Origin: Gemmatimonadota bacterium
GTDB lineage: Bacteria > JAAXHH01
Reading direction: 5' to 3'
Assembly: GCA_009837395.1 (NCBI GenBank)
Contig: VXTP01000030.1
Span: forward strand, 19,211 to 83,210
DNA: 64,000 nucleotides
Shown: positions 13,772 to 28,718 of the stretch, one piece after another
Position numbering within the stretch: the first letter of the stretch is position 1
Layout: each line of letters opens with the position of its first letter
Notes under the pieces: generated by a model
The model's input: the letters and a program-made list of their open reading frames with translations, nothing else
Told to the model about the DNA's origin: nothing
Databases searched by the model: none
Program-made: the position numbers and the translations under genes

Positions 13772-14194
13772 TCAGACGAACTCCAGATCTCCTGCGTCAT
13801 TGACCCGCCGATAGTAGCAACCGGTCCGGTACTGGCCATCGCTGTCCTTCGTATGACAAGCACCGCCGCCCTGGGGCGTCACGAGAAAGACCACGGAATT
13901 CTGCTCGCAGTTAATGCGGACTTCATCGATTCCCAGCGCATTTCCCGATGTGGCGCCCTTGACCCACAGCTCGTTACGCGACGTGCTCCAGAACGTGGCG
14001 ATCCCGGTCTTCAGGGATTCGTCCAGGGCCAGGCGGTTGATGTAGGCCAGGATCAATACTTCCTTCGTAGACGAATCCTGCACGACTACCGGCAGGACGT
14101 CCTCCTCGATGCCCGCGATCTGCCTGAGTTTCGAGAAATCGAGGGATTCCTTCGATCCCTCTTCCAGGTGATCGGATCCTGATGATGTCGCCAT
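13772..14194 (-). CDS. hisI: phosphoribosyl-AMP cyclohydrolase
   Basis: The 140-aa product reads VVQDSSTKEVLILAYINRLALDESLKTGIATFWSTSRNELWVKGATSG, which matches the HisI signature. Confidence 0.85.
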   Translation of the reverse strand: MATSSGSDHLEEGSKESLDFSKLRQIAGIEEDVLPVVVQDSSTKEVLILAYINRLALDESLKTGIATFWSTSRNELWVKGATSGNALGIDEVRINCEQNSVVFLVTPQGGGACHTKDSDGQYRTGCYYRRVNDAGDLEFV

Positions 14195-16848: not shown

Positions 16849-18192
16849 TCAGTCCCCGTTCCGGTCTTTCGAAAGCCGGCGGCGAATGGCCATGGCGTGG
16901 GCAGACAGGCCTTCGGCTTCGGCAAGCCGGATCGCGGCCGGCCCCAACCGTTTTTCCGCCTTTTCGTTAACGGCGAACAGACTGGTGATCTTCAGGAAAT
17001 CCCGGACGCTCAAGGGAGAATGGAACCGGGCGCTGCCCCCGGTGGGCATGATGTGGCTGGGACCGGTGACATAGTCGCCCAGGGCCTCGGAGGAATGCTC
17101 ACCCACGAAGATCCCCCCGGCGTTTTGAATCCCGTCCACCAGCGGCCAGGGATCCGCCACCAGCAGGCACAGGTGCTCCGGCGCGTAGCTGTTTGCCAGT
17201 TCGCACGCCTCTACCAGGTCCGATACGAGCACGATCCCTCCGTTCCGTGCCAGGGAGGAACGGATAATGTCCGCCCGGTCCAGCTCGGAAAGTTGCTCCT
17301 CCACGGCCTGTTGCACCGCCAGGGCCAGCGCGGACGACGGCGTGATCAGTATGGCGCTCGCCATCGTATCGTGCTCGGCCTGCGCCAGCAGGTCGGCCGC
17401 CGCGAGGTCCGGACCGGCCGTCTCGTCGGCGATGAGCAGGGTCTCGGTGGGGCCGGCGAGCTGGTCGATATCCACGATACCGTACACCTGGCGCTTGGCC
17501 AGAGTCACGAAGACGTTTCCCGGCCCCACGATCTTGTCGACATGGGGAACCGTTTCGGTGCCATGGGCTATCGCCGCGATCGCCTGGGGCCCGCCGATCC
17601 GGTAGACCGCGTCCGCGCCCGCCACGGAAGCCGCGGCCAGCACGGCGGATGGCACCGCGCCGTCCCTTCCGGGCGGCGTGACCACGACGACCTCCCGGAC
17701 GCCCGCGACCCGGGCGGGGATCACGGCCATCAGCAGCGAGGAGGGATAGGCCGCGCCACCGCCGGGCACGTAGACGCCCACCCGGTCCAGCGGCCGGACG
17801 ATCTGGCCGGTTCCACCCTCTTCGTCCCAGTGCGTCCAGGACCCGGCCGACTGCCGCCCGTGAAAAGTCCGTATGCGGCCGGCCGCGGTCTCCAGGGCAT
17901 CGAGCAACCCGGAAGGCAGCGATGCGGCCACCTCGTCGATTTCGGATCGGGGGACCTCGAAAGTGTCCGGGGCGCTTCCGTCCAGCAGACGGGCGTACTT
18001 CCTGATCGCATCATCCCCGTTGTCTCTAACGTCGTTGACGATGCGGGCTACTGCCTGTTCCGCCGTCAGGGGCTCGCCGAAGAGTTCCCGGTTCCGCGCT
18101 TCGATCTCCGGCGTGTGCATGGCTTCGTTCAGCGGCCGCCGCCGCAGGATGCTCGACCCGGCCTCTTCGGCGGACAGTATCCGGATGTTCAT
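16849..18192 (-). CDS. hisD: histidinol dehydrogenase
   Basis: [36 protein letters not shown] is the HisD signature, and the 447 aa length fits. Confidence 0.9.
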
Positions 18193-18211
18193 CTTCCCCT
18201 CACTGGTTTGT

Positions 18212-19264
18212 TCATGAGGTATTCCTCGTCGCGGTCCTCAGTGGCGCCAGCGCCTCGAGTATGGGACCACAACCGAATTTCACGCAGTCCGTCGCCGGGA
18301 GCCCGGTCTCCCCTTCGACCCGGTCCACTTCCCGCCTGGCATCGTCCATGGACATGCCGAAGCAGTTGAGCGATACGGCCACGACACGGCACGGGAACAG
18401 GGGCCGGGCAATGTTCTCGTGGGCGGTTATCATCTCCGCGTAGGACGGCACGGCCACGGGAAGGTTGCGCATCACTTCCCTCCCCGGCTGATGACACAGT
18501 ACCAGGGCCTGCGGGGCCGCCCCGTGAAGCAGACCGAGCGATACGCCCGAATAGGAAGGATGCAGAATCGTACCCTGCCCTTCGATGACCAGCAGTTCCC
18601 GATGCTTGCGTTCCAGCACGAGTCTTTCCACCGCGCCCGAGATGTAGTCCGCCGCCACGGTATCCACCGCGATGCCCGATCCGGCGATCATGATGCCGGT
18701 CTGCCCGGTAGCCACGAACTCGGCGTCCCAGCCTGCCTCGCGGGCCGCGCGGTCGATTTCGATCGCGGCGATCTTCTTGCCGATGCTGGAGTCGGCGCCG
18801 ACGGTCAGCACACGCAGGTTGGGGAGGGCGTGGGCCAGGTGCCGCCCCACGTCCAGGTCTCCGGGCGGCTGCCGCACGTCCCACAACCGCACGCCTTTCC
18901 GCCCGGCATGCCGGGCGAACGCCTCGTCCTCGTTGAGAAAAGTATGCAGCCCGTTTACCACCTCGAGCCCGTGCTCGATGGCCTCATGGATGACTTCCCG
19001 CCAGGCGTCGGGCAAAACGCCCCCCGGCGTCGCGATGCCGATGACCAGCGACGTCGGTTCGAAGGTCATCGCATCCTGCAGGGTCGAAACGACCGGGATG
19101 CCCTTACCCACCTCGAGCACGTCTTCGAGTTTCCTTCCGGCGTGCACGCTGTCGAGCACCGCCACGGTCTCGTCGGACTTGTAGCGGACCAGTGACGCGG
19201 CCGTCTTGGAGGAGAACGTGCCCAGTTGGCCCTCGGTGAGAATGACCATTCGCCTGAATTGCAT
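18212..19264 (-). CDS. DUF1611 domain protein (Rossmann-like N-domain plus P-loop-like C-domain)
   Basis: The 350-aa product has the VILTEGQ..KTA..LVRY architecture typical of DUF1611. Its start codon lies inside repeat unit 1. Confidence 0.7.
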   Translation of the reverse strand: MQFRRMVILTEGQLGTFSSKTAASLVRYKSDETVAVLDSVHAGRKLEDVLEVGKGIPVVSTLQDAMTFEPTSLVIGIATPGGVLPDAWREVIHEAIEHGLEVVNGLHTFLNEDEAFARHAGRKGVRLWDVRQPPGDLDVGRHLAHALPNLRVLTVGADSSIGKKIAAIEIDRAAREAGWDAEFVATGQTGIMIAGSGIAVDTVAADYISGAVERLVLERKHRELLVIEGQGTILHPSYSGVSLGLLHGAAPQALVLCHQPGREVMRNLPVAVPSYAEMITAHENIARPLFPCRVVAVSLNCFGMSMDDARREVDRVEGETGLPATDCVKFGCGPILEALAPLRTATRNTS

Positions 19265-19318: not shown

Positions 19319-20350
19319 TCAGCTCATCGAAACGACGCGGCCGGTTTCCAGGGATTCCGTTGCGGCGTCCAGTACCTTCATCAGCGCCAGCATCTCGTGG
19401 GGCTGGATGGCCAGTTCGGCGCCGTCGGCCAGCACGGCCGCGATGTTCCGGTAGTAGTCCTCCCAACTGCCTTTCACCGGATCCAGGATCATCTCCTCTA
19501 CCGACCCGTCCCGCTCCGCCGCCACCCGGACACGGTCTTCGGGTGCCTCCACCGCGTCCTCGATCCTGCCCTTCTTCATCCAGTCCTCCTGGGGATCGAG
19601 TCCTGTCTTTACGAGGGATCCCCGGGTACCCAGCACGTACCAGTGGGGCTTGGATATATGCGACAGATTGCTGATTTCCATCCGGTACTCGGCACCCGTT
19701 TCGAAATAAAGCGTGCAGTTGACATGATCTTCTATGTCCCCTTCCCACACGCGTTTGTGGCCTTTGCAGTGGACTGCCGCGGGGCGGCCGGCCAGCAGTT
19801 GCAGGCCCTGGTCGACCAGGTGGGCGCCCCAGTCGTAAAGCAGGCCGCCGCTGTCCGCCCGGCTTGTCCGCCAGCCCCTGGATGCCCGGAACCGGTGCAC
19901 CGCCCTTTCGACCAGGAAGGGATCACCAAGCAGACCATCCTCTATTGCCTTGCGCACGGTCAGATAGCCCCAGTCCCAGCGGCGGTTGTGGAAGACGCTC
20001 AGCATGACCCCGCGCCGCCGGCTGACCGCGATCATTTCCTCGGCTTCGGCGGCCGACATGCACATGACCTTGTCGACGACCACGTGTCTTCCGGCCTCCA
20101 TGGCCTCAATGGCCAGGGACGCGTGGGTATGGTGAGGCGTGGCCAGAATAACCAACCGGATGCCGTCGTCCGCAAGGAGATCGGTCAGCGTCTCATGAGT
20201 ATCCACGGACCAGTCCCGACGCGCCTGCGCACGGCGTTCCGGGTCCCGGCTGGCAACGGCAGTGAGTTGCAGCCCCTCGGTCCGCGAAACCAGGTAGGCG
20301 TGAAAAAGCCGTCCCGCCAGTCCGTAGCCCACGATGCCCGTTTGTATCAT
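19319..20350 (-). CDS. Gfo/Idh/MocA family oxidoreductase
   Basis: MIQTGIVGYGLAGRLFH plus a C-terminal alpha/beta dimerization domain fit the family. I used the internal ATG at 20350. Confidence 0.85.
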   Translation of the reverse strand: MIQTGIVGYGLAGRLFHAYLVSRTEGLQLTAVASRDPERRAQARRDWSVDTHETLTDLLADDGIRLVILATPHHTHASLAIEAMEAGRHVVVDKVMCMSAAEAEEMIAVSRRRGVMLSVFHNRRWDWGYLTVRKAIEDGLLGDPFLVERAVHRFRASRGWRTSRADSGGLLYDWGAHLVDQGLQLLAGRPAAVHCKGHKRVWEGDIEDHVNCTLYFETGAEYRMEISNLSHISKPHWYVLGTRGSLVKTGLDPQEDWMKKGRIEDAVEAPEDRVRVAAERDGSVEEMILDPVKGSWEDYYRNIAAVLADGAELAIQPHEMLALMKVLDAATESLETGRVVSMS

Positions 20351-20464
20351 GACGATTCCCCACTGCCATACACACGCCCACGCCCGCATCCGCGTCCTCC
20401 GCCCCGCCGGTTATGCGGGGGACAATATACGGGATGGGCCGGATGCATGGCAAACGCGAATTGG

Positions 20465-20492
20465 GTGGACTATAATGTCCGTGACAATCCAC
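20465..20492. promoter_or_regulatory. TATAAT hexamer embedded in inverted repeat (GTGGAC-TATAAT-GTCC..ATCCAC); candidate -10 plus operator for sulfatase gene
   Basis: The sequence gtggactataatgtccgtgacaatccac lies about 90 nt upstream of the sulfatase ATG at 20581. Confidence 0.3.
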
Positions 20493-20580: not shown

Positions 20581-22032
20581 ATGGCCACATCGCGACCGAA
20601 CGTGCTCTGCATCCTCACCGACGACCAGGGCGTCTGGGCGGCGGGTTGTTACGGCAACGGGGAAATCCGCACGCCGAGCATCGACCGGATCGCGGAGACC
20701 GGGGTTCGCTTCGATCGTTTCTTCGTGGCTACGCCCGTCTGCTCCCCCAGCCGCGCGACGCTGCTTACCGGCCGCATCCCCTCCCAGCATGGCGTGCACG
20801 ACTGGATCAAGGGAGGCAATGTCGGCGAGGGCGCTGCTTCCTACCTCGAAGGAGAAACGGCGTATACCGATGTGCTCGCGGCCCACGGCTGGCGATGCGG
20901 CCTCAGTGGCAAGTGGCACCTGGGCAACAGCACCCTGCCCCAGCACGGGTTCTCCCACTGGTTCACCCACCAGTTCGGCGGCGGCCCCTACAATGATGCG
21001 CCCATGGTCCGGAACGGCGTCCCGGTCACCGAGCCGGGGTACGTCACGAACGTCATTACCGACGATGCGCTGGCCTTCATCGACCGCCACGCCAACCAGG
21101 ATGATCCGTTCTACCTGGGCGTCCACTACACCGCGCCGCACAGTCCGTGGACCGGACATCCGCAGGATATCGTCGATTCCTACGACGGCTGCCCTTTCGT
21201 TTCCTGCCCCCAGGAACCCATACACCCCTGGGCGGGCGGCCTGACCCGCGAATGCATGGGTAACCGGGAAAGCCTGCAGGGCTACTTCGCGGCCGTCACG
21301 GCCATGGACCTCGACGTCGGCCGGTTACTCGACCGGCTCGATCATCACGGCATCCGCGAAGACACCCTGGTGGTCTTCCTGAGCGACAACGGTTTCAGCC
21401 TGGGGCACCACGGGTTCTGGGGCAAGGGCAACGGAACCAGCCCGTTGAACATGTACGAGAACTCCATCCTGGTGCCTGCGATTGTCAGCCAGCCCGGACG
21501 CCTGCCCGAAGGCGCCGTGCAGCCGGCGATGATCAGCGCCTACGATTTCATGCCCACGCTCCTGTCCTACCTGGATCTGCCCGTGCCCTGGGACCGCAAC
21601 CTGCCGGGGCGTAATGCCCTGGACGCCTGGATGTGCGGGGCGGCACGGCAAGCTCGGACGGACCAGGAAGACCAGCCAGCCAGGGGCAACGCGTCCGACG
21701 CCGGCCGGGACCACGTCGTGGTATTCGACGAATACGGCGGCACGCGCATGATCCGCACCGAATCGTGGAAATACATACACCGGTATCCCGACGGACCCGA
21801 CGAACTGTACGACCTGGAAAACGATCCCGACGAACGGGCGAATCTCGCGGACGATGCCGGTTATGCCGACAGGCGCCGGTCGCTCCGCGGCGAGTTGGAG
21901 GGCTGGTTCGAACGTTATGCCGACCCGGACCGGGACGGCCGCACCAGGCCGGTCTCCGGCGCCGGCCAACTGCGACCCGTGGGCGGCGCGTGGGATGACG
22001 ACTCGCCGGATTTCGAACAACTGAAATCGTGA
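20581..22032 (+). CDS. sulfatase (formylglycine-dependent, CSPSR motif), no signal peptide
   Basis: It has the LCILTDDQG..TPVCSPSRATLLTGR catalytic core and a C-terminal sulfatase domain. It is 483 aa. Confidence 0.9.
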   Translation: MATSRPNVLCILTDDQGVWAAGCYGNGEIRTPSIDRIAETGVRFDRFFVATPVCSPSRATLLTGRIPSQHGVHDWIKGGNVGEGAASYLEGETAYTDVLAAHGWRCGLSGKWHLGNSTLPQHGFSHWFTHQFGGGPYNDAPMVRNGVPVTEPGYVTNVITDDALAFIDRHANQDDPFYLGVHYTAPHSPWTGHPQDIVDSYDGCPFVSCPQEPIHPWAGGLTRECMGNRESLQGYFAAVTAMDLDVGRLLDRLDHHGIREDTLVVFLSDNGFSLGHHGFWGKGNGTSPLNMYENSILVPAIVSQPGRLPEGAVQPAMISAYDFMPTLLSYLDLPVPWDRNLPGRNALDAWMCGAARQARTDQEDQPARGNASDAGRDHVVVFDEYGGTRMIRTESWKYIHRYPDGPDELYDLENDPDERANLADDAGYADRRRSLRGELEGWFERYADPDRDGRTRPVSGAGQLRPVGGAWDDDSPDFEQLKS

Positions 22033-22043
22033 AGGAGAACTCG

Positions 22044-22805
22044 ATGGCTGACACCAAAATCGCCGTTACGCTCTATACGTTGCGCGACTTCGTGCAGACG
22101 CCGGCCGACATCGCGGACACCCTGAAGAAAGTAAAGTCCATCGGTTATGATCATATTCAGCTTTCGGCCCTCGGTCCCGTCGATCCCGCGGAACTCGGCA
22201 GCATGATCCGTGACGCGGGACTGAAGGTCTGCGCCACGCACGTGCCCTTCGAACGCCTGCAGGATGAACCGAACAGCGTGATCGAGGAGCACCACCTCTG
22301 GGGATGCGAGCATATCGCCGTCGGGTCCATGCCGCGGTCCTACTGGGACGACCCGGACGGGTTCTCCCGGTTCGCGGCGGACGCGTCGGTCGTGGCGCTC
22401 AGGCTGAAAAAAGCCGGCATGTCCTTCAGCTATCACAATCACCATACGGAACTCGTGCGAGTCGGCGACCGGACGGGCCTGGCCATCCTGGTGGAGAAGA
22501 GCGATCCCGCCCTGTGCTTCGAGATCGACACCTACTGGATCCAGTACGGCGGGGGTGATCCGATCCACTGGATCGAACGGGTAAGCAACCGGTGCCCGGT
22601 CATCCACTTCAAGGACCTGGGCGTGTCGGGCAGGGAGCAGGTGATGGCCGAGATCGGCGAGGGGAACATGAACTGGTCCGGCATCGTCGCCGCCTGCGAG
22701 ACCGCCGGGGCCCAGTGGTACGTGGTCGAGCAGGATACCTGCGCCGGTAATCCCTTCGACAGCATCGCCATCAGCTATCGCAACATGAACGCCATGGGAC
22801 TTTGA
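22044..22805 (+). CDS. sugar phosphate isomerase/epimerase (xylose isomerase-like TIM barrel)
   Basis: It has AP-endonuclease-2/TIM-barrel motifs (EHIAVGS, HNHH, EIDTYW). I chose the ATG at 22044, which has a GAAGGAG ribosome-binding site 6 nt upstream. The track starts at the GTG at 22029. Confidence 0.8.
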   Translation: MADTKIAVTLYTLRDFVQTPADIADTLKKVKSIGYDHIQLSALGPVDPAELGSMIRDAGLKVCATHVPFERLQDEPNSVIEEHHLWGCEHIAVGSMPRSYWDDPDGFSRFAADASVVALRLKKAGMSFSYHNHHTELVRVGDRTGLAILVEKSDPALCFEIDTYWIQYGGGDPIHWIERVSNRCPVIHFKDLGVSGREQVMAEIGEGNMNWSGIVAACETAGAQWYVVEQDTCAGNPFDSIAISYRNMNAMGL

Positions 22806-22845: not shown

Positions 22846-23625
22846 ATGATCGACCTTTCAGGCAAGACGGCGCTGATCAGCGGTTCCTCCCGCGGAATCG
22901 GCAAAGGGATCGCACTGGAAATGGCCCGCGCCGGGGCGGACGTCGCCGTCAACTACTTCCGACACCGGGACGACGGCGAGGCCGTAGCGGACGAAATCCG
23001 CGCCATGGGGCGGCGGGCGGTCGTCATCGGCGCGGACGCGTCGGACCGGTCCGCCGTGGACGAGATGGTGGAACAGACCGCCGAGGATCTCGGCGGGCCC
23101 GATATCGTCGTGGCCAATGCCTACTATTCCACGCGGGAGCCCTTTCTCGAGATGGACGTGGATGAACTGCGGAAAACCTACGATGTCAGCCTCTTCGGCG
23201 CCTTCCACGTCGCCCAGGCCGGTGCCCGGAAGATGGCGGCCGGAGGGAAGGGCGGCAGCATCCTCTTCATCAGTTCGGTCATGTCCTTCCTGCCTTTCCC
23301 TACGTCGCTCGCCTACTCTTCGGCCAAGGCCGGCATGAACCACATGGCGGCCATCATCGCCCTGGAGCTGCTGGAGCACCGCATCCGCGTGAACGTGATC
23401 GAACCCGGGTGGACCGACACGCCCGGCGAGCGCCAGTACTCCACGGAGCAGGAACTCGAGGAGGGCGGCAGGCGGCTTCCCTGGGGCCGGATGGGCACCA
23501 TCGAGGACCTGGGCAAGGCCGCCACCTTTCTTTGTTCCGACGCCGCGGACTACATCACCGGAGAAGTCCTGCGCGTAGACGGTGGATTCTGGCTGAAGCG
23601 CGGCACGGCCTCCATCAAGGAGTGA
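22846..23625 (+). CDS. SDR family oxidoreductase (FabG-like)
   Basis: It carries GSSRGIGKG, NAY, S..YSSAK motifs and is 259 aa. Confidence 0.85.
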   Translation: MIDLSGKTALISGSSRGIGKGIALEMARAGADVAVNYFRHRDDGEAVADEIRAMGRRAVVIGADASDRSAVDEMVEQTAEDLGGPDIVVANAYYSTREPFLEMDVDELRKTYDVSLFGAFHVAQAGARKMAAGGKGGSILFISSVMSFLPFPTSLAYSSAKAGMNHMAAIIALELLEHRIRVNVIEPGWTDTPGERQYSTEQELEEGGRRLPWGRMGTIEDLGKAATFLCSDAADYITGEVLRVDGGFWLKRGTASIKE

Positions 23626-23680
23626 ATTCCCGCGCGACCGGGCTGGATCACTCGGGCCAACCCCCCGACAGGGCCGGGAC

Positions 23681-23730
23681 AGTCCATGTCAGACCATGCC
23701 AGACCAGGCTAGACCAGGCATGACCAAGCT
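23681..23730. repeat. 10-bp tandem repeat x5 (AGACCAGGCN) covering candidate start codons of large membrane protein A
   Basis: The units are agtccatgtc, agaccatgcc, agaccaggct, agaccaggca and tgaccaagct. In-frame ATGs at 23696 and 23720 lie in the units. Confidence 0.8.
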
Positions 23731-25669
23731 GACCACGAAACCCATATCCCTTAAAACCGCCGGCCTGGGTCTGGCCTTCGCCTGTTTCGTCGCCTTCTGG
23801 GGACAGCACGCCTCCGCACAGCTGAACTACAACTATCTGACCTTCCCCCAGATGCCGCTGTGCCTGGTCATTCCCTTCGTCTTCCTGGTCCTTCTTCCGA
23901 ACGTACTGATCCGCGCCATAAACCGGGACGCCGCGCTCACGAGGCCGGAACTCCTGGTCATCTTCGCCATGGGGATGATCGCGGCCATGGTCCCCGACTG
24001 GGGCATGGTCCGCTATCTCATCAGCGTCATCACCGCGCCGCACTACTTCGCCAGCCCGGAGAACCAGTGGGAGGCGCACTTCTTCGCCTACCTGCCGGAA
24101 TGGGCGGTCATTCCCAATGACAAGGGGCAGGTTTCCGATTTCTTCGCGGGACGGCCATCCGGTCTGCCCATACCCTGGCAGGACTGGGTCATCCCACACT
24201 TCTGGTGGATGTCGGCCCTGGGCGCGCTGCTCTTCATCGGCGCCTGCCTGGTCGTGATCTTCCGGAAGCAGTGGGTGGAACACGAACGGCTTCAGTTTCC
24301 CATGGGCGAGGTGGTGCTCCGCCTGCTCGAGGCCGAACAAGGCGCATCCGGGCAGTCCGGGAGGTGGCCGGCCCTCTTCGGTAACCGGCTTTTCCAGGTC
24401 GGCTTCGCAGCCAGCCTGGCCGTCATGACCTGGAACATCATCGGCTTCTGGGGCGTGCTGCCCCACATCCCCCTTCCCGGTCCGGTATACAACGTGGTCA
24501 TCGACCCGGCCTACCCGCCCATCGCCATCCGGCTCGTGCCCTACGTGCTGTGTTTCGCCTTCTTCGTCAATGTCGAGATCCTCTTCAGCGTCTGGTTCTT
24601 CCAGGTGCTGGGCATTCTGGAAACCGGCCTGCTCAACCGTTTCGGCGTGGTTTCGCCTGCCGAGACGATCGTGCCCCGCGGCCTGGTGGCCATCCAGTTC
24701 TGCGGCGGACTGATCATGTTCGCCCTGATCAGCGTCTGGATGGCCCGGAAACATATCCGAAACGTCCTTCGAAAGTCCCTCGGCAGGGAAAGCGACCTGC
24801 GCGACGAAAATGAAATGTTCTCCTACCGCACGGCGGTCATCGGCCTGGTACTGGGTCTGCTCTTCATGACCGCCTGGCTGCACGCCATCGGGTTCTCCGT
24901 CCCCGTCGCCCTGCTCTTCCTGTTCCTCCTGCTGGTGTTCTATTTCGGTATCGCGCGCATCCTCGCCGAAGCGGGCCTGATCAACCTCGATCTGCCGATC
25001 AACGCCCATGCCTTCACGGTGGGGATGGTGGGCTCGGCCAACCTGTCGGGGTCGACGCTGACCGGTCTCGGACTGACCAACGCCTTCGCGCGGAACTGGC
25101 GGACCTTTACGATGGTCGGGCTTTCACACGTCGCCTTCTGGCGGAACTATCTCGGGGAGAACCGCGGACGGCTGTTCCTGCTCGTGATGCTCGCGTTCGT
25201 CTGCGGGACGGCGATTTCGACGGGGTACGTCGTCTACTCAGGTTACGCGGAGGGGGCGGACAACCTGCATATCAACCTGCGCAACACGGGGAACCTGTTC
25301 TTTGACCTGGTAGTGAAGTGGATGAAGAACGCCACGCAGGTCACCGCCCTCGAAATCCTGTTTCTAACGGTCGGCATGGCCGTAAGCAGCCTGCTGGCCC
25401 TGGGCCGGTACCTCTTCTACTGGTGGCCGCTCAATCCCATCGGGTTCGCCATCGGGGCCTCGGCGCCCATACGGGGGCTCACCTTCACCCTCTTCGTCGC
25501 CTGGCTCGTTCAGGTCATCCTGCTCCGCATCGGCGGCGTAAGGCTGTACCGGAAAGCGCAACCGCTGTTCCTGGGCATCCTCGTCGGATACGTAGTCGGG
25601 GTCCTGGCCGCCTACATCGTCGATACGATTTACTTCCCGGACACGCCGCACATCACCGAGATCTTCTAG
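23696..25669 (+). CDS. large polytopic membrane protein A, unknown family (paralog of 25676..27634)
   Basis: The product is about 650 aa with at least 14 hydrophobic helices. Conserved blocks shared with the convergent paralog include QWVEHERLQFP, the region around NVEILFSVWFFQ and a C-terminal YFPDTPHITEIF. The start may be the ATG at 23720 (MTKLTT). Confidence 0.75.
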   Translation: MPDQARPGMTKLTTKPISLKTAGLGLAFACFVAFWGQHASAQLNYNYLTFPQMPLCLVIPFVFLVLLPNVLIRAINRDAALTRPELLVIFAMGMIAAMVPDWGMVRYLISVITAPHYFASPENQWEAHFFAYLPEWAVIPNDKGQVSDFFAGRPSGLPIPWQDWVIPHFWWMSALGALLFIGACLVVIFRKQWVEHERLQFPMGEVVLRLLEAEQGASGQSGRWPALFGNRLFQVGFAASLAVMTWNIIGFWGVLPHIPLPGPVYNVVIDPAYPPIAIRLVPYVLCFAFFVNVEILFSVWFFQVLGILETGLLNRFGVVSPAETIVPRGLVAIQFCGGLIMFALISVWMARKHIRNVLRKSLGRESDLRDENEMFSYRTAVIGLVLGLLFMTAWLHAIGFSVPVALLFLFLLLVFYFGIARILAEAGLINLDLPINAHAFTVGMVGSANLSGSTLTGLGLTNAFARNWRTFTMVGLSHVAFWRNYLGENRGRLFLLVMLAFVCGTAISTGYVVYSGYAEGADNLHINLRNTGNLFFDLVVKWMKNATQVTALEILFLTVGMAVSSLLALGRYLFYWWPLNPIGFAIGASAPIRGLTFTLFVAWLVQVILLRIGGVRLYRKAQPLFLGILVGYVVGVLAAYIVDTIYFPDTPHITEIF

Positions 25670-25675
25670 GCCGAC

Positions 25676-27634
25676 CTACCAGTTGTGCACGTTGTGTCCC
25701 TGGCCAGGGAACCAGATGACATCGACGACCAGGGAGAGGGTCACGCCCGCCGCGTAACCCAGCAGCACGCCGATCACCGCCGGCTGCATCCTCCGGTACA
25801 TTTCGAATCCGCCCAGGTGCAGCAGCAGCACCTTGATCAGCCAGATCGTGAAGATCGACGTGATTTCGATGTTTATGATGTCCGCGTAGGCCACGACGTA
25901 GCCTATGGGATGGAAGGGCCAGCCCGGGAAACGGTACTGCATGAACAGGAGACCCGTGGTAATCCCGGCGCCCAGGAAAAGGAAGTAGATCTCTTCGTAG
26001 GACAGGGTATAGGGATTGTTGAACCACGTGGCCAGTTGGTCGTAGAACCCCTCGGCCCGGAGCGGCGCGAAATCATGGGCGCCCGTCCCCGATGCCCCGG
26101 CGTAGATCGTATAGCCGTTCGTGACGATGAAGGTCAGTACCAGCACCACCCCCACCGCGGCGAACAGGCCCTTCCTGGACCGGGTAAACCCCTCGGAGAC
26201 CTTCAGGCCGTGTATCAGTGAATAAAGTCCGATGCCCCGGTGGTTGTGAGAGATGGCGTGGGTGAGTCCCAGGGCCGTGAGATTCGAGGGCGAGAGGTTG
26301 GTCGATCCGATGACGCCCACTGTCATTTCGTTCGAATTGACGGGAAGGTCGAGAAAGACCAGCCCGGTCTCGGCGACGATGCGGGTGACGCCGATGTACA
26401 GCGCCAGGGTGATCGCGAGGAATAGGACCGCCACGTCCACCGACATGCCCATGCGGTTCAGCCAGAACAGCAGGTAGCCCAGCCCGCCCGCCAGTCCAAG
26501 CAATGCCGTCCGGTAGGACAGCAATTCCCTGGAATCGTCGAGTTCCGGCGCCCGGCCCAAAGCCTTTCGCCACACGGCCCTCAGGTGATGTCTTCCGATC
26601 CACAGGCCCCACAGCACGAATACCCAGAACCCGCCGAAGTGCTGGGTCTTTACGATGAACTGGGACCCGCCCGCCATGCCGGACGCCGATACGCCCAGCT
26701 GGTTGAGCAGGCTGATTTCCAGCAGTGCGATGAGGTGGAAGAACCAGATGCTGAAGAGCACCTTGAGGTCGGCGAAGTAGGCGAAGCACATCATGAAGAT
26801 GTTGAACTGCACCTGGGTCTCGGGAACGGATTGCGCCAGCTGGATCTGCGTTCGGAAGGGCGCACCGACGGGTATGGCCGGTACGTGTCCGAAATAGGCC
26901 AGGCAGTTCCAGGCCAGCAGGGCGAATGTGAGCCCGAATCCCACCTGGAAGTACCGGTTCGTCATGAACGCCGGCACCAGACCGCCCCGGGTCGTTCCCT
27001 CGATGAGCATCGAAGGTATCTGTACCGCGGGAAAGGACAGCCGCTCGTGTTCGACCCATTGCCGACGGAAAACCACCGCAGTGCAGGCCATGACCAGGAA
27101 CAGTGCCGCCAGCATACACATCCACCAGAAGAGGGGAACGATCCAGTCGAGCCACAGCAGGACGCTCTGGCCGGCGCCTTCGTAGAACCCCGTCGCGGCC
27201 CCGAGGTCGTCCCGGACGACCAGCCAGCCAGGCAGATGGGGGAAGAAAGTATCCGCCCACCGGTTCTCCGGCGTGGCGTAGTAGAAGGGCGACGCCAGGA
27301 TGCCGACGAAGTAGTCCACAAAGGCCTTGCCGGGTATCGTCGACGAGACCAGGCAGAAGACGAAGAGCACGGCCAGTTCACCCACCGAAAACGCCCGTTC
27401 GGGCCGCCACCTGCGCAGGGGAATCTGCATGCAGAAGATCACGGCGAGGAAGGAAACCAGCGCCGCGACCGGGAGATGGCTCAGGGTGAGCCTCGGGCCG
27501 TGCATGACGTAATTGGTGTGGGGCGTCCAGATCGCGATGAACACGGCGAGCGCGCTGCCCAGGATGAGCACCCTGGGGGTCAGGCCGTTCACGGTTTGGG
27601 TGGAGGGTGATACCTGATTCGAGTCGGTCGACAT
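25676..27634 (-). CDS. large polytopic membrane protein B, unknown family (paralog of 23696..25669)
   Basis: The 652-aa product shares blocks with protein A (RQWVEHERLSFP, KVLFSIWFFH, C-terminal WFPGQGHNVHNW). The two are convergent, with stops 6 nt apart. Confidence 0.75.
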   Translation of the reverse strand: MSTDSNQVSPSTQTVNGLTPRVLILGSALAVFIAIWTPHTNYVMHGPRLTLSHLPVAALVSFLAVIFCMQIPLRRWRPERAFSVGELAVLFVFCLVSSTIPGKAFVDYFVGILASPFYYATPENRWADTFFPHLPGWLVVRDDLGAATGFYEGAGQSVLLWLDWIVPLFWWMCMLAALFLVMACTAVVFRRQWVEHERLSFPAVQIPSMLIEGTTRGGLVPAFMTNRYFQVGFGLTFALLAWNCLAYFGHVPAIPVGAPFRTQIQLAQSVPETQVQFNIFMMCFAYFADLKVLFSIWFFHLIALLEISLLNQLGVSASGMAGGSQFIVKTQHFGGFWVFVLWGLWIGRHHLRAVWRKALGRAPELDDSRELLSYRTALLGLAGGLGYLLFWLNRMGMSVDVAVLFLAITLALYIGVTRIVAETGLVFLDLPVNSNEMTVGVIGSTNLSPSNLTALGLTHAISHNHRGIGLYSLIHGLKVSEGFTRSRKGLFAAVGVVLVLTFIVTNGYTIYAGASGTGAHDFAPLRAEGFYDQLATWFNNPYTLSYEEIYFLFLGAGITTGLLFMQYRFPGWPFHPIGYVVAYADIINIEITSIFTIWLIKVLLLHLGGFEMYRRMQPAVIGVLLGYAAGVTLSLVVDVIWFPGQGHNVHNW

Positions 27635-27914: not shown

Positions 27915-28718
27915 ATGTCGACAACCGGTGTTTCGCTGAAGACCAGCGGTTTCGGCCAGACGCGCCGCAGAGACGCCTGGTGGGCGCAGCAGCTGGTGAC
28001 GTTGGGTGTTTTCTCCGCCTTCGTCGTCTACTCCACGTGGGCGGCTTTTCAGGGAGAGTTCTACGCCTGGGGTCCCTATCTTTCGCCCTTCTATTCACCC
28101 GAAATCTTCGGCAGTTCGCCCCATGCCCTGTTCGGTCCCAGGCCCGAATGGTGGCCGGCCATGCTCCCGTTCTCACCGGCCTTCCTGATCCTCTGGGCGC
28201 CGGCCGGATTCCGCATCACCTGCTACTACTACCGGGGCGCCTACTACAAGGCCTTCTGGGCCGACCCACCTTCCTGCAGCGTTTCCGAGCCGAGGAAGAA
28301 ATACCGGGGCGAACAGTCCTTTCCGCTCATACTCCAGAACATTCACCGGTACTTTCTCTACGCGGTGTTCATCATCTGGATCTTCCTGGCTCACGACGCG
28401 TGGAAGGCCCTGTGGTTCACGGACGCGGCGACCGGCGAGACTTCCTTCGGCATCGGGATCGGCACCCTGGTGTTGACCCTGAACGTCATCCTCCTGGGCG
28501 GCTACCAGTTCGGCTGCCACTCCCTGCGCCACCTGATCGGCGGCAACCTGGACCTCCTTTCGAAAGCGCCTGTGCGACATGCGGGTTATAACTGCGTTTC
28601 GTGCCTGAACCGAGGCCACATGAACTGGGCCTGGCTCAGCCTGGTATGGGTCGCTTTCGCGGATGTATATGTACGCCTGGTGGCCATGGGCGTGTGGACG
28701 GATTGGAGAATCCTGTAA
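27915..28718 (+). CDS. sdhC: succinate dehydrogenase/fumarate reductase cytochrome b membrane anchor (b558-like)
   Basis: It has 5 predicted TM helices with conserved His residues. Its stop overlaps the sdhA start (TAATG). Confidence 0.7.
   Translation: MSTTGVSLKTSGFGQTRRRDAWWAQQLVTLGVFSAFVVYSTWAAFQGEFYAWGPYLSPFYSPEIFGSSPHALFGPRPEWWPAMLPFSPAFLILWAPAGFRITCYYYRGAYYKAFWADPPSCSVSEPRKKYRGEQSFPLILQNIHRYFLYAVFIIWIFLAHDAWKALWFTDAATGETSFGIGIGTLVLTLNVILLGGYQFGCHSLRHLIGGNLDLLSKAPVRHAGYNCVSCLNRGHMNWAWLSLVWVAFADVYVRLVAMGVWTDWRIL

Follow-up and report, generated by a model that had tools for sequence, protein, structure and literature searches.

The plant iron-chelate transporter HvYS1 is a proton-coupled, elevator-type importer that forms homodimers (PMC9691689). 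Prokaryotic OPT permeases (TC 2.A.67 clusters 4-5; Gomolplitinant & Saier 2011) are mostly predicted to import peptides, and one Bacteroides subcluster is predicted to take up oligosaccharides (PMC3061005). [quoted passage not shown] Here we describe two adjacent genes, A and B, in a stretch of 64,000 nucleotides that we refer to as the window (Table 1). We favour, with moderate confidence, the reading that they code for inner-membrane secondary importers with an OPT/YSL fold, A most plausibly taking up a sulfated glycoside or a small sulfated sugar and B probably another compound.

The initial annotation described A and B as a convergent pair of paralogous polytopic membrane proteins with several conserved sequence blocks, and each of these points was borne out. 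Only positions 25670-25675 lie between the TAG stop codons of the two genes, and the spacer measures 6-70 nt in orthologs. BLASTP aligned A and B over their full length at 35% identity (230/651, E = 2e-144). All of the named blocks were found in both proteins, including RKQWVEHERLQFP / RRQWVEHERLSFP, NVEILFSVWFFQ / KVLFSIWFFH and the C-terminal tails YFPD..H / WFPG..H. B has no same-strand neighbour, is divergent from sdhCAB-like genes and appears to be transcribed alone. It is the fastest-diverging gene in the block. The 10-bp tandem repeat with two in-frame ATGs that had been noticed at the start of A is also real. TRF detected it with a period of 10, 3.7-4.6 copies and 80-85% matches, and the array is unique within the window. 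The in-frame ATGs are at 23696 and 23720, and another at 23686 is out of frame. Because the orthologs and the public annotation of an identical sequence start A at ATG 23720 (649 aa), the 657-aa form is probably not used. The repeat is partly kept in three orthologs (L002, L010 and L012) and missing in a fourth (L013), and we found no unusual RNA structure at this site (z = +0.71).

Table 1. Features of the A/B locus, in window coordinates.
Feature	Position	Strand	Description
GFO/IDH/MocA oxidoreductase	19319..20389	-	Pfam match; divergent from sulfatase operon
Promoter-like site ATGGCA-18-TATAAT	20447..20476	+	Divergent intergenic region upstream of sulfatase; consensus match only
Sulfatase, first operon gene	20581..22032	+	Cys-type CSPSR motif, no signal peptide; Pfam Sulfatase E = 8e-47, plus SGSH_C
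Xylose-isomerase-like TIM-barrel enzyme	22029..22805	+	Pfam AP_endonuc_2; 4-nt overlap with sulfatase gene
SDR oxidoreductase	22846..23625	+	Directly upstream of A; Pfam adh_short_C2 E = 5e-59
Decamer tandem repeat	23680..23735	+	About CAGACCAGGC, 4-5 copies; TRF; covers SDR-A intercistronic region and start of A
Gene A, long form	23696..25669	+	Upstream in-frame ATG 23696, giving 657 aa
Gene A	23720..25669	+	DUF6785/DUF6784 membrane protein, 649 aa, conserved ATG 23720
DUF6785 domain of A	23753..25255	+	Pfam; residues 20-520 of 657-aa form
DUF6784 domain of A	25358..25627	+	Pfam; residues 555-644 of 657-aa form
Spacer between convergent stops of A and B	25670..25675		gccgac, 6 nt; no terminator-like hairpin
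Gene B	25676..27634	-	DUF6785/DUF6784 membrane protein, paralog of A, 652 aa
DUF6784 domain of B	25715..25987	-	Pfam; residues 550-640
DUF6785 domain of B	26108..27580	-	Pfam; residues 19-509

The two proteins had been thought to belong to an unrecognized family, which HMM searches refuted. Both match Pfam DUF6785 (PF20581; A, 326.2 bits, E = 4e-97; B, 384 bits, E = 1e-114) and DUF6784 (PF20580; A, 75.8 bits, E = 3e-21; B, 68.9 bits, E = 4e-19) far above the gathering thresholds of 25 and 26.4 bits, respectively. The DUF6785 E-values, GC contents at codon positions 1/2/3 that resemble those of other window genes (A, 0.60/0.41/0.86; B, 0.59/0.42/0.85) and dN/dS values against orthologs of 0.08-0.17, indicative of purifying selection, establish that A and B are real genes and not chance ORFs of GC-rich DNA. 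The order DUF6785 then DUF6784, found in A, B and all 40 aligned homologs, is the standard architecture, and we saw no difference between A and B and other full-length, high-scoring members. A profile search returned 7,462 clusters at 50% identity. The hosts are mainly Latescibacterota, Gemmatimonadota, Zixibacteria and Planctomycetota MAGs, with several DUF6785 paralogs per genome, and relatives of A and B carry the NCBI name "DUF6785 family protein". Pfam assigns no function to either domain, and a literature search found no paper mentioning the family. A and B thus fall in a catalogued yet uncharacterized bacterial family, not in a well-characterized one with a known substrate.

We compared A and B with transporters of known structure. 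The predicted structure of each gave a unique, strong fold match to YS1, and fold comparison placed the YS1-type fold of HvYS1 (PDB 7WSR/7WST) in both models. About 14 long hydrophobic helices and two hairpin-like pairs were present, compatible with 16 segments. Candidate MFS, APC (LeuT-fold), RND and flippase assignments were rejected, the models having no fold similarity to solved members. Identity to HvYS1 and plant YSL proteins (PF03169, TC 2.A.67) is 9-13%. A, B and 38 homologs lacked a PF03169 (OPT) match even at E <= 10, NCBIfam had no match for A or B, and the family profile found none among PDB sequences. Aligning the 40-sequence DUF6785 alignment to 30 PF03169 YSL proteins, all from plants, with hhalign gave a probability of 28.7% and E = 6e-4, versus E = 0.3 for a reversed-template control. 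Default settings gave a collinear alignment of 189 columns, which grew to 532 with mact 0.1. In its low-confidence part, YSL GLTDxN lies opposite DUF6785 ETGLVxLDxP, about 2 residues out of register. An hhalign comparison of the N- and C-terminal halves of the family for internal duplication was not significant (E = 0.15). OPT superfamily membership is argued for by the predicted structures and by this marginal hhalign result (probability 29%), and the models suggest that DUF6785/DUF6784 is most likely a very divergent bacterial branch of the OPT/YSL fold. The fold match of both proteins thus backs the transporter role proposed at the outset. It also removes the claim that they are a novel kind of transporter, because it places them with known OPT/YSL transporters. 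Since the structure matches YS1 alone, A and B are most likely nutrient importers.

The likeness to described OPT proteins has limits. HvYS1 comes from a plant, whereas the hosts of A and B are uncultured bacteria (Latescibacterota and Gemmatimonadota), and nothing in the surroundings of A and B corresponds to its substrate, Fe(III)-phytosiderophore. The proton-binding aspartates of HvYS1 are D446, D490 and D494, and it has a disulfide and a dimer strand at its C-terminus; A and B were compared with it at the level of the whole fold. Prokaryotic OPT permeases are of bacterial origin, like A and B, and their genes lie beside those for peptidases or other catabolic enzymes; they contain about 16 hydrophobic segments (PMC3061005), a number with which the helices modelled for A and B are compatible. 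They are recognisable as OPT by sequence, which DUF6785 proteins are not, and the two groups are likened here by description. The conserved acidic residues of the family are E86, E123, E197, D367, E370, E422 and D638 (B numbering). By analogy with HvYS1, A and B would act as secondary transporters in the inner membrane that move their substrate by an elevator-like motion, with a proton drive probably acting through E86, E123, E197, E422 and D638; protons as the coupling ion are our guess.

A is the last gene of an operon in the order sulfatase, TIM barrel, SDR, A, with gaps or overlaps of -4, 40 and 94 nt and no terminator found ahead of A. The promoter-like site upstream of the sulfatase gene is a candidate operon promoter by its consensus match, and such matches are no more numerous than expected by chance in that intergenic region. 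The nearest solved relatives of the sulfatase are carbohydrate sulfatases, namely the GlcNAc-6-sulfatase 5g2v (E = 2e-53) and the mucin sulfatase 7p24. Its residues 3-5 align to residues 21-31 of these targets, so the enzyme is leaderless. The best solved relative of the TIM-barrel enzyme is AtOGE (8bvk; phmmer against 8bvk_A, E = 1.7e-30), whose H132, H134, E161, D163, H189 and E233 are all retained (aligned YHNH, EID, H-KD and E-D). These residues make it a candidate AtOGE-like 3-keto-glycoside beta-eliminase; it could instead be a hydratase or isomerase. The SDR resembles sugar 1-dehydrogenases, its best NCBIfam match being glucose 1-dehydrogenase at 208.7 bits, under the 215-bit cut-off. 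The GFO/IDH/MocA gene, which has weak NCBIfam matches under the cut-offs and is syntenic in relatives, may encode a partner enzyme that oxidises or reduces sugars. The locus thus resembles the AtOGE pathway in having an AtOGE-like enzyme two positions upstream of A and a divergently adjoining GFO-family gene. It differs in the presence of a sulfatase and an SDR, and we saw no flavin-dependent glycoside 3-dehydrogenase.

None of the three operon enzymes upstream of A has an export signal, so their substrate must enter the cytoplasm. We propose A as the importer of this substrate, most plausibly a sulfated glycoside or a small sulfated sugar, on which desulfation, oxidation and cleavage by beta-elimination would follow in the cytoplasm. 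B probably imports a compound other than that of A. The initial annotation had read the pair as an uptake system for the adjacent pathway; this reading is probable for A, which ends the conserved operon, whereas B appears to be transcribed separately.

We examined how far these gene associations extend. The sulfatase/TIM/SDR-A block is syntenic in every close relative found (B 76-97% identical), with SDR-A adjacency kept in 6/6 orthologous loci, and every member of the window's clade retains the A/B pair. Across the family, we surveyed 102 operon-like neighbour genes of 75 non-redundant homologs. At most 1/102 was a sulfatase. PhyH was no commoner than in distant control genes. The expected synteny with sulfatase/PhyH genes therefore holds in the window's shallow clade and is not supported as a family trait, and because it is conserved within that clade only, the sulfatase/TIM/SDR linkage could reflect shared ancestry and not function. 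The commonest neighbours were AP_endonuc_2 and GFO_IDH_MocA (7/102 each). The former compares with at most 1/139 (p about 0.002-0.01, uncorrected for the many families examined), and the latter has no distance gradient around DUF6785 genes. In all, 107 Pfam families occurred among the 102 neighbours. Neighbour types family-wide include peptidases, sugar oxidoreductases and amino-acid enzymes. Some family genes overlap or abut genes for cytoplasmic catabolic proteins (M32 carboxypeptidase, MR/MLE, PepX, SelA-like, AP_endonuc_2 and GFO). Catabolic neighbours together with several paralogs per genome are a pattern typical of substrate-diversified uptake permeases. The closest relatives of A outside its clade (44-45% identity) adjoin an M32 carboxypeptidase or MR/MLE gene and not sugar enzymes.

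These last loci bear on whether A and B import oligopeptides, glutathione or metal-chelates like canonical OPT/YSL proteins, their sole structural relatives, with the position of A in a sulfatase operon being incidental. Two homologs with 44% identity to A (P0062 and P0060) show translational coupling to an M32 carboxypeptidase gene and have genes for an ATP-grasp ligase and an aminotransferase upstream; another homolog follows a PepX-type peptidase. Peptide import is also the prediction for most prokaryotic OPT proteins (PMC3061005). However, peptidase genes are absent from the A operon and from beside B, the sulfatase, AtOGE-like TIM barrel and SDR always precede A in the window's clade, and family neighbours are very diverse. 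Conservation of the substrate site cannot be assumed at such low identity to YS1. We consider this explanation unlikely. Adjacency of the paralogs would be explained if A and B were subunits of one heterodimeric transporter. HvYS1 dimerises with itself through its scaffold domain (PMC9691689), and the conserved C-terminal tail of A and B might match its dimerising strand. Two or more DUF6785 genes lie within 10 kb at 31/85 loci, often in tandem, and some pairs, including A/B throughout the window's clade, are conserved between genomes. The other 54/85 loci have a single copy, and A and B, being convergent, form separate transcription units that differ in their upstream partners. Identity within neighbouring pairs runs from 29% to 80%, with no recurring A-type/B-type pairing across lineages. 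Repeated duplication in place accounts for this pattern better than an obligate pair of ancient origin would, and we regard a heterodimer as improbable.

Transport by A and B is inferred, as are its direction, its coupling ion and the substrate, and the fold alone cannot separate import from export. The two proteins might instead act as exporters or flippases, or do something other than transport in the membrane, such as working with MacB/FtsX-type machinery. One DUF6785 protein is fused to a MacB_PCD/FtsX protein (P0202, 2120 aa), unfused MacB_PCD/FtsX homologs lie 19-38 nt from DUF6785 genes at two loci (L077 and L078), FtsX genes are close by at two more (L089 and L091), and one homolog is near glycosyltransferase genes. 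Neither an FtsX nor a glycosyltransferase gene is present near A and B in the window, and the dominant neighbours of the family are cytoplasmic catabolic genes, not biosynthetic or export genes. To our knowledge, the characterized OPT/YSL proteins are all importers, and we consider this possibility very unlikely. That A and B belong to a transporter family unrelated to any known one, as first suggested, accords with the failure of Pfam, NCBIfam and PDB sequence searches to match a named transporter family; the YS1 fold match largely refutes it and leaves it scarcely credible.

Import by an OPT/YSL-type fold involves no new kind of biology; it combines a structure-based DUF annotation with a plausible pathway context. 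If it is correct, a DUF family whose thousands of members come from little-known phyla gains a concrete, testable function as secondary importers. Because HvYS1 was the sole OPT/YSL-type structure returned by our PDB searches, a divergent bacterial branch would also widen the sequence space for studying the elevator mechanism. More speculatively, DUF6785/DUF6784 may be an unrecognized OPT/YSL elevator clade whose diversification led away from metal chelates and peptides, with a member in a sponge-type symbiont lineage that imports sulfated glycosides for cytoplasmic desulfation and oxidative beta-elimination; this extension is doubtful as it stands. Adjacent paralog pairs might additionally form heterodimeric elevators. 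Such a cytoplasmic route for sulfated glycans would bypass periplasmic sulfatases and glycoside hydrolases. Metabolic reconstructions from genomes now leave these genes as "hypothetical protein". An importer role would explain how substrates reach leaderless sulfatases and the recently described 3-keto-glycoside beta-eliminase pathway in uncultured, sulfatase-rich bacteria.

The initial annotation had described two long convergent ORFs, A and B, as encoding paralogous proteins with nearly adjacent stops and several shared sequence blocks, and each of these points was borne out. Both genes end in TAG, and positions 25670-25675 alone separate the stops. BLASTP aligned A with B over 651 residues at 35% identity (E = 2e-144), and we found every one of the cited blocks in the two proteins. 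The GC contents at codon positions 1/2/3 (0.60/0.41/0.86 for A, 0.59/0.42/0.85 for B) follow the pattern of the real genes in this window, whose overall GC content is 62.8%. The dN/dS values against orthologs from three related MAGs are 0.08-0.17. A and B are genuine genes under purifying selection. GenBank already holds the exact proteins (A, MXZ75362.1; B, MXZ75363.1) as "hypothetical protein" from a "Gemmatimonadetes bacterium" MAG, and submitters have variously labeled close relatives as Gemmatimonadetes or Latescibacterota. The coordinates of the features we discuss are collected in the table.

Features of the A/B region and of a recurrent gene module in DUF6785 loci from other genomes (L numbers)
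Feature	Coordinates	Strand or direction	Remarks
PRA-CH (hisI-like) gene	13772-14194	-	flanked by two PhyH genes
Region with histidinol-dehydrogenase-family gene	16849-19264	-	Pfam E = 4e-155
Promoter-like site	20447-20476		divergent intergenic region
Sulfatase	20581-22032	co-directional with A	first of series
Xylose-isomerase-like TIM barrel	22029-22805	co-directional with A	overlaps sulfatase by 4 nt
SDR	22846-23625	co-directional with A	directly upstream of A
Period-10 array	23680-23735		overlaps start of A
ORF A	23696..25669	+	657 aa
A, adopted start	from 23720	+	last gene of co-directional series
ORF B	25676..27634	-	652 aa
Hydrophobic protein	27915-28718	+	267 aa
PorV-like/DUF6785 module	L040:4076-11980
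PorV-like/DUF6785 module	L051:6671-11950
PorV-like/DUF6785 module	L071:6495-~11950
PorV-like/DUF6785 module	L074:16392-21930

The initial view that A and B belong to an unrecognized family was wrong in the narrow sense, because both proteins match Pfam HMMs: DUF6785 (E = 4e-97 for A and 1e-114 for B, residues about 20-520) precedes DUF6784 (E = 3e-21 and 4e-19, residues about 550-644). Pfam has no function entry for these domains, NCBIfam lacks a family model and returned no match for A or B, and in the literature library searched no paper names DUF6785 or DUF6784. Scanning 40 members against Pfam at E <= 10 gave the two DUFs plus noise and nothing else, and a sequence-profile search of the PDB with the family profile gave 0 matches at E <= 10. 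The family is large. Among 1.84 billion cluster representatives, the family profile matched 7,462 clusters at E <= 1e-3 and 5,489 at E <= 1e-10, and scanning a single genome for each GTDB species brought up at least 592 DUF6785 loci. The best 80 of these were all from MAGs, mostly of Latescibacterota and also of Gemmatimonadota, Zixibacteria, and Planctomycetota, often with several DUF6785 copies per genome; in the window, A and B are the only members. Acidic residues are conserved among 114 sequences (B numbering: E86, E123, E197, D367, E370, E422 in 82%, and D638), and these could be candidates for coupling or binding. Three members of 824-874 aa (P0175, P0208, and P0210) carry an insertion of ~200 aa between the DUF6785 and DUF6784 regions that has no Pfam match.

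We modeled A and B with AlphaFold2 from 40-sequence alignments (pLDDT 90.3 and pTM 0.91 for A; pLDDT 87.6 and pTM 0.88 for B). The predicted structures of both proteins matched the fold of barley Yellow Stripe 1 (HvYS1, here YS1), a proton-coupled, elevator-type importer of the OPT/YSL family whose authors in 2022 reported no homologous structure (PMC9691689). At the sequence level, no member of the DUF6785 alignment matched the Pfam OPT model (PF03169), even at E <= 10. We therefore compared profiles directly. The OPT side was collected by a search seeded with a ZmYS1 fragment; all proteins returned carried a precomputed PF03169 annotation, and one was 100% identical over 71% of the seed. Against the resulting template of 30 aligned PF03169 proteins, plant YSLs only and many of them partial, hhalign gave a probability of 28.7% and E = 6e-4. 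A lower MAC threshold produced a collinear alignment over 532 columns (query 10-633, template 99-709), a control with the reversed template gave E = 0.3, and global mode was uninformative. In the alignment, the first helix has TxR(A/G) on both sides, the almost invariant E86 faces the Glu of the YSL TRQEN motif, and RRQWVEHERLxFP faces LRKIMIIDYKLTYPSG. The profile comparison is compatible with a very remote DUF6785-OPT homology, short of proof, and it is on the predicted fold that we would place DUF6785 in the OPT superfamily. Comparing the N-terminal with the C-terminal half by hhalign gave no significant sign of internal duplication (E = 0.15), the only hint being TxRA..GL against SYRxA..GL.

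The gene series that ends with A contains no terminator-like hairpin before A. Its sulfatase begins at the catalytic domain, with query residues 3-5 aligning to residues 21-31 of solved sulfatases, and is leaderless. The closest solved relatives are carbohydrate sulfatases, namely the GlcNAc-6-sulfatase 5g2v (E = 2e-53) and the mucin-desulfating sulfatase 7p24. The best solved relative of the TIM-barrel protein is 8bvk (E = 1.7e-30), AtOGE, an O-glycoside beta-eliminase from Agrobacterium that works alongside a Gfo oxidoreductase and cleaves 3-keto-glycosides (PMC10628242). The residues that serve AtOGE as metal ligands and catalytic base (H132, H134, E161, D163, H189, and E233; PMC10628242) are all kept in the TIM-barrel protein. 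Since none of the neighbour enzymes reached an NCBIfam curated cut-off, their specific names are tentative. Genes for a GFO/IDH/MocA oxidoreductase, a DUF1611 (DgcN-like) protein, and a histidinol-dehydrogenase-family protein diverge from the A series, in an apparent operon of their own. Together with the hisI-like gene, the last of these reflects either histidine biosynthesis scattered among catabolic genes or paralogs recruited to catabolism. B diverges from sdhCAB-like genes. The 267-aa hydrophobic protein encoded just before the sdhA/sdhB-like genes, where a membrane-anchor or cytochrome b subunit would lie, matches nothing in Pfam or NCBIfam, and the same is true of its L001/L002 ortholog.

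A tandem repeat with two in-frame ATGs had been noted at the start of A. The repeat is real, at 3.7-4.6 copies with 80-85% matches by TRF, and is the sole such array in the window. Its decamer unit, about CAGACCAGGC in 4-5 copies, spans the SDR-A intercistronic region. The ATGs at 23696 and 23720 are both in frame with A, and that at 23686 is out of frame. The first in-frame ATG is present only in the window and in L009, a 97% identical relative. We take 23720 as the start because the orthologous A proteins in L002, L003, and L012 begin at its equivalent (M-T/A-K-L-T-T/A-K-P-I-S-L-K) and the public annotation of the A sequence itself is the 649-aa form. The repeat is partly conserved: GACCAGGC-like decamers occupy the same place in L002, L010, and L012 and are deleted in L013. 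RNA folding at the repeat was no better than for shuffled sequence (z = +0.71). With its 10-bp phasing, the array might be a target for a regulator that binds DNA or RNA.

The block sdhCAB / B / A / SDR / TIM / sulfatase / GFO / DUF1611 / hisD-like is syntenic in all relatives whose B is 76-97% identical (L002, L003, L009, L010, L012, and L013). Because this clade is shallow, the synteny is weak evidence for functional linkage. A is unlisted in the gene index of L003, yet its ORF is intact, so this is an indexing gap and a pseudogene is ruled out. No gene of the block diverges as fast as B: in L010, L012, and L013, at equal evolutionary distance, its identity falls to 76%, compared with 87% for A, 91-93% for SDR, and 90% for sdhA. 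Its dN/dS is nonetheless just 0.10-0.17. The spacer between the A and B stops varies from 6 to 70 nt across L002, L010, L012, and L013 and lacks a terminator-like hairpin in the window, so the two transcripts may overlap at their 3' ends.

The initial annotation had also suggested that the pair is an uptake system for the substrate of the adjoining catabolic block, and that adjacency to sulfatase/PhyH clusters be checked in related genomes. Within the window's clade the sulfatase block is indeed syntenic with A and B; as a family-wide trait, the association is ruled out. Genes in the retrieved loci were predicted with an ORF caller based on GC signature, whose output matched the database annotation for three loci. 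Taking as operon-like neighbours the genes on the same strand at gaps < 300 nt, at most two per side, we obtained 107 around 75 non-redundant DUF6785 genes. Pfam was run on 102 of these, with 139 genes > 6.5 kb from a DUF6785 gene as controls. Sulfatases made up <= 1/102 neighbours versus 5/139 controls and PhyH 5/102 versus 4/139, neither difference being significant (Fisher). The neighbours covered 107 families overall, led by AP_endonuc_2 (7), GFO_IDH_MocA (7), PhyH (5), Zn-ADH (3), and PorV-like (3), and the controls included four MR/MLE genes. AP_endonuc_2 was enriched near DUF6785 (7/102 versus <= 1/139, p about 0.002-0.011, Fisher, uncorrected for the number of families compared). An apparent GFO enrichment (7/102 versus 2/139, p = 0.04, Fisher) is weakened by the distance bins, in which GFO, sulfatase, and PhyH each account for about 2-3% of genes without a gradient towards the DUF6785 gene. 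Other DUF6785 genes lie with a PepX peptidase and a SelA-like enzyme, with PdxA and a 2OG oxygenase, or with heparinase II/III-like proteins and M32 carboxypeptidase. In the nearest relatives of A outside the clade (44-45% identity), a 4-nt overlap joins the DUF6785 gene to one for an M32 carboxypeptidase (L089, L091) or an MR/MLE enzyme (L090). Thus, the family associates with a wide variety of cytoplasmic catabolic enzymes, as expected of substrate-diversified importers, and not with sulfatase or PhyH especially.

Two further arrangements recur in parts of the family. P0202 (2120 aa) fuses a ~1470-aa protein with MacB_PCD/FtsX domains to a complete DUF6785/DUF6784 protein. In L077 (15875-20512) and L078 (11927-16642), unfused homologs of its large part are separated from DUF6785 genes by 19-38 nt, another overlaps the DUF6785 match (L073:3376-8049), and separate smaller MacB_PCD/FtsX genes occur three genes downstream in L089 (15052-16902) and L091 (13200-15602). 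Such proteins may be functional partners of DUF6785 in part of the family, with none in the window. In Latescibacterota, a three-gene module encodes, in this order, a ~750-785-aa protein (no Pfam match in the one member scanned), a PorV-like outer-membrane beta-barrel of ~330 aa, and DUF6785. The latter two may form an outer-membrane plus inner-membrane uptake pair; PorV-like genes also make up 2/139 controls.

Because YS1 is itself a dimer, A and B might form a heterodimer, but the evidence from paralog pairs does not favour this. Two or more DUF6785 genes lie within 10 kb of each other in 31/85 loci, and these neighbours share anything from 29% to 80% identity, with partners that are not common between lineages. 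Conservation of an A-type/B-type pairing across lineages is thereby ruled out. The pairs look like repeated local duplication, and the convergent layout is a feature of the window's clade alone.

On the best-supported interpretation, A and B are secondary importers with the OPT fold and with different substrates. We infer transport, its inward direction, and proton coupling for both. A would supply the cytoplasmic sulfatase, AtOGE-like, and SDR enzymes, most plausibly with a sulfated glycoside, and B would carry something else. Assigning DUFs through predicted structures is routine by now, and within their catalogued DUF family A and B are unremarkable. What our analysis adds is a structure-based link between DUF6785 and OPT/YSL and a pathway context for it.
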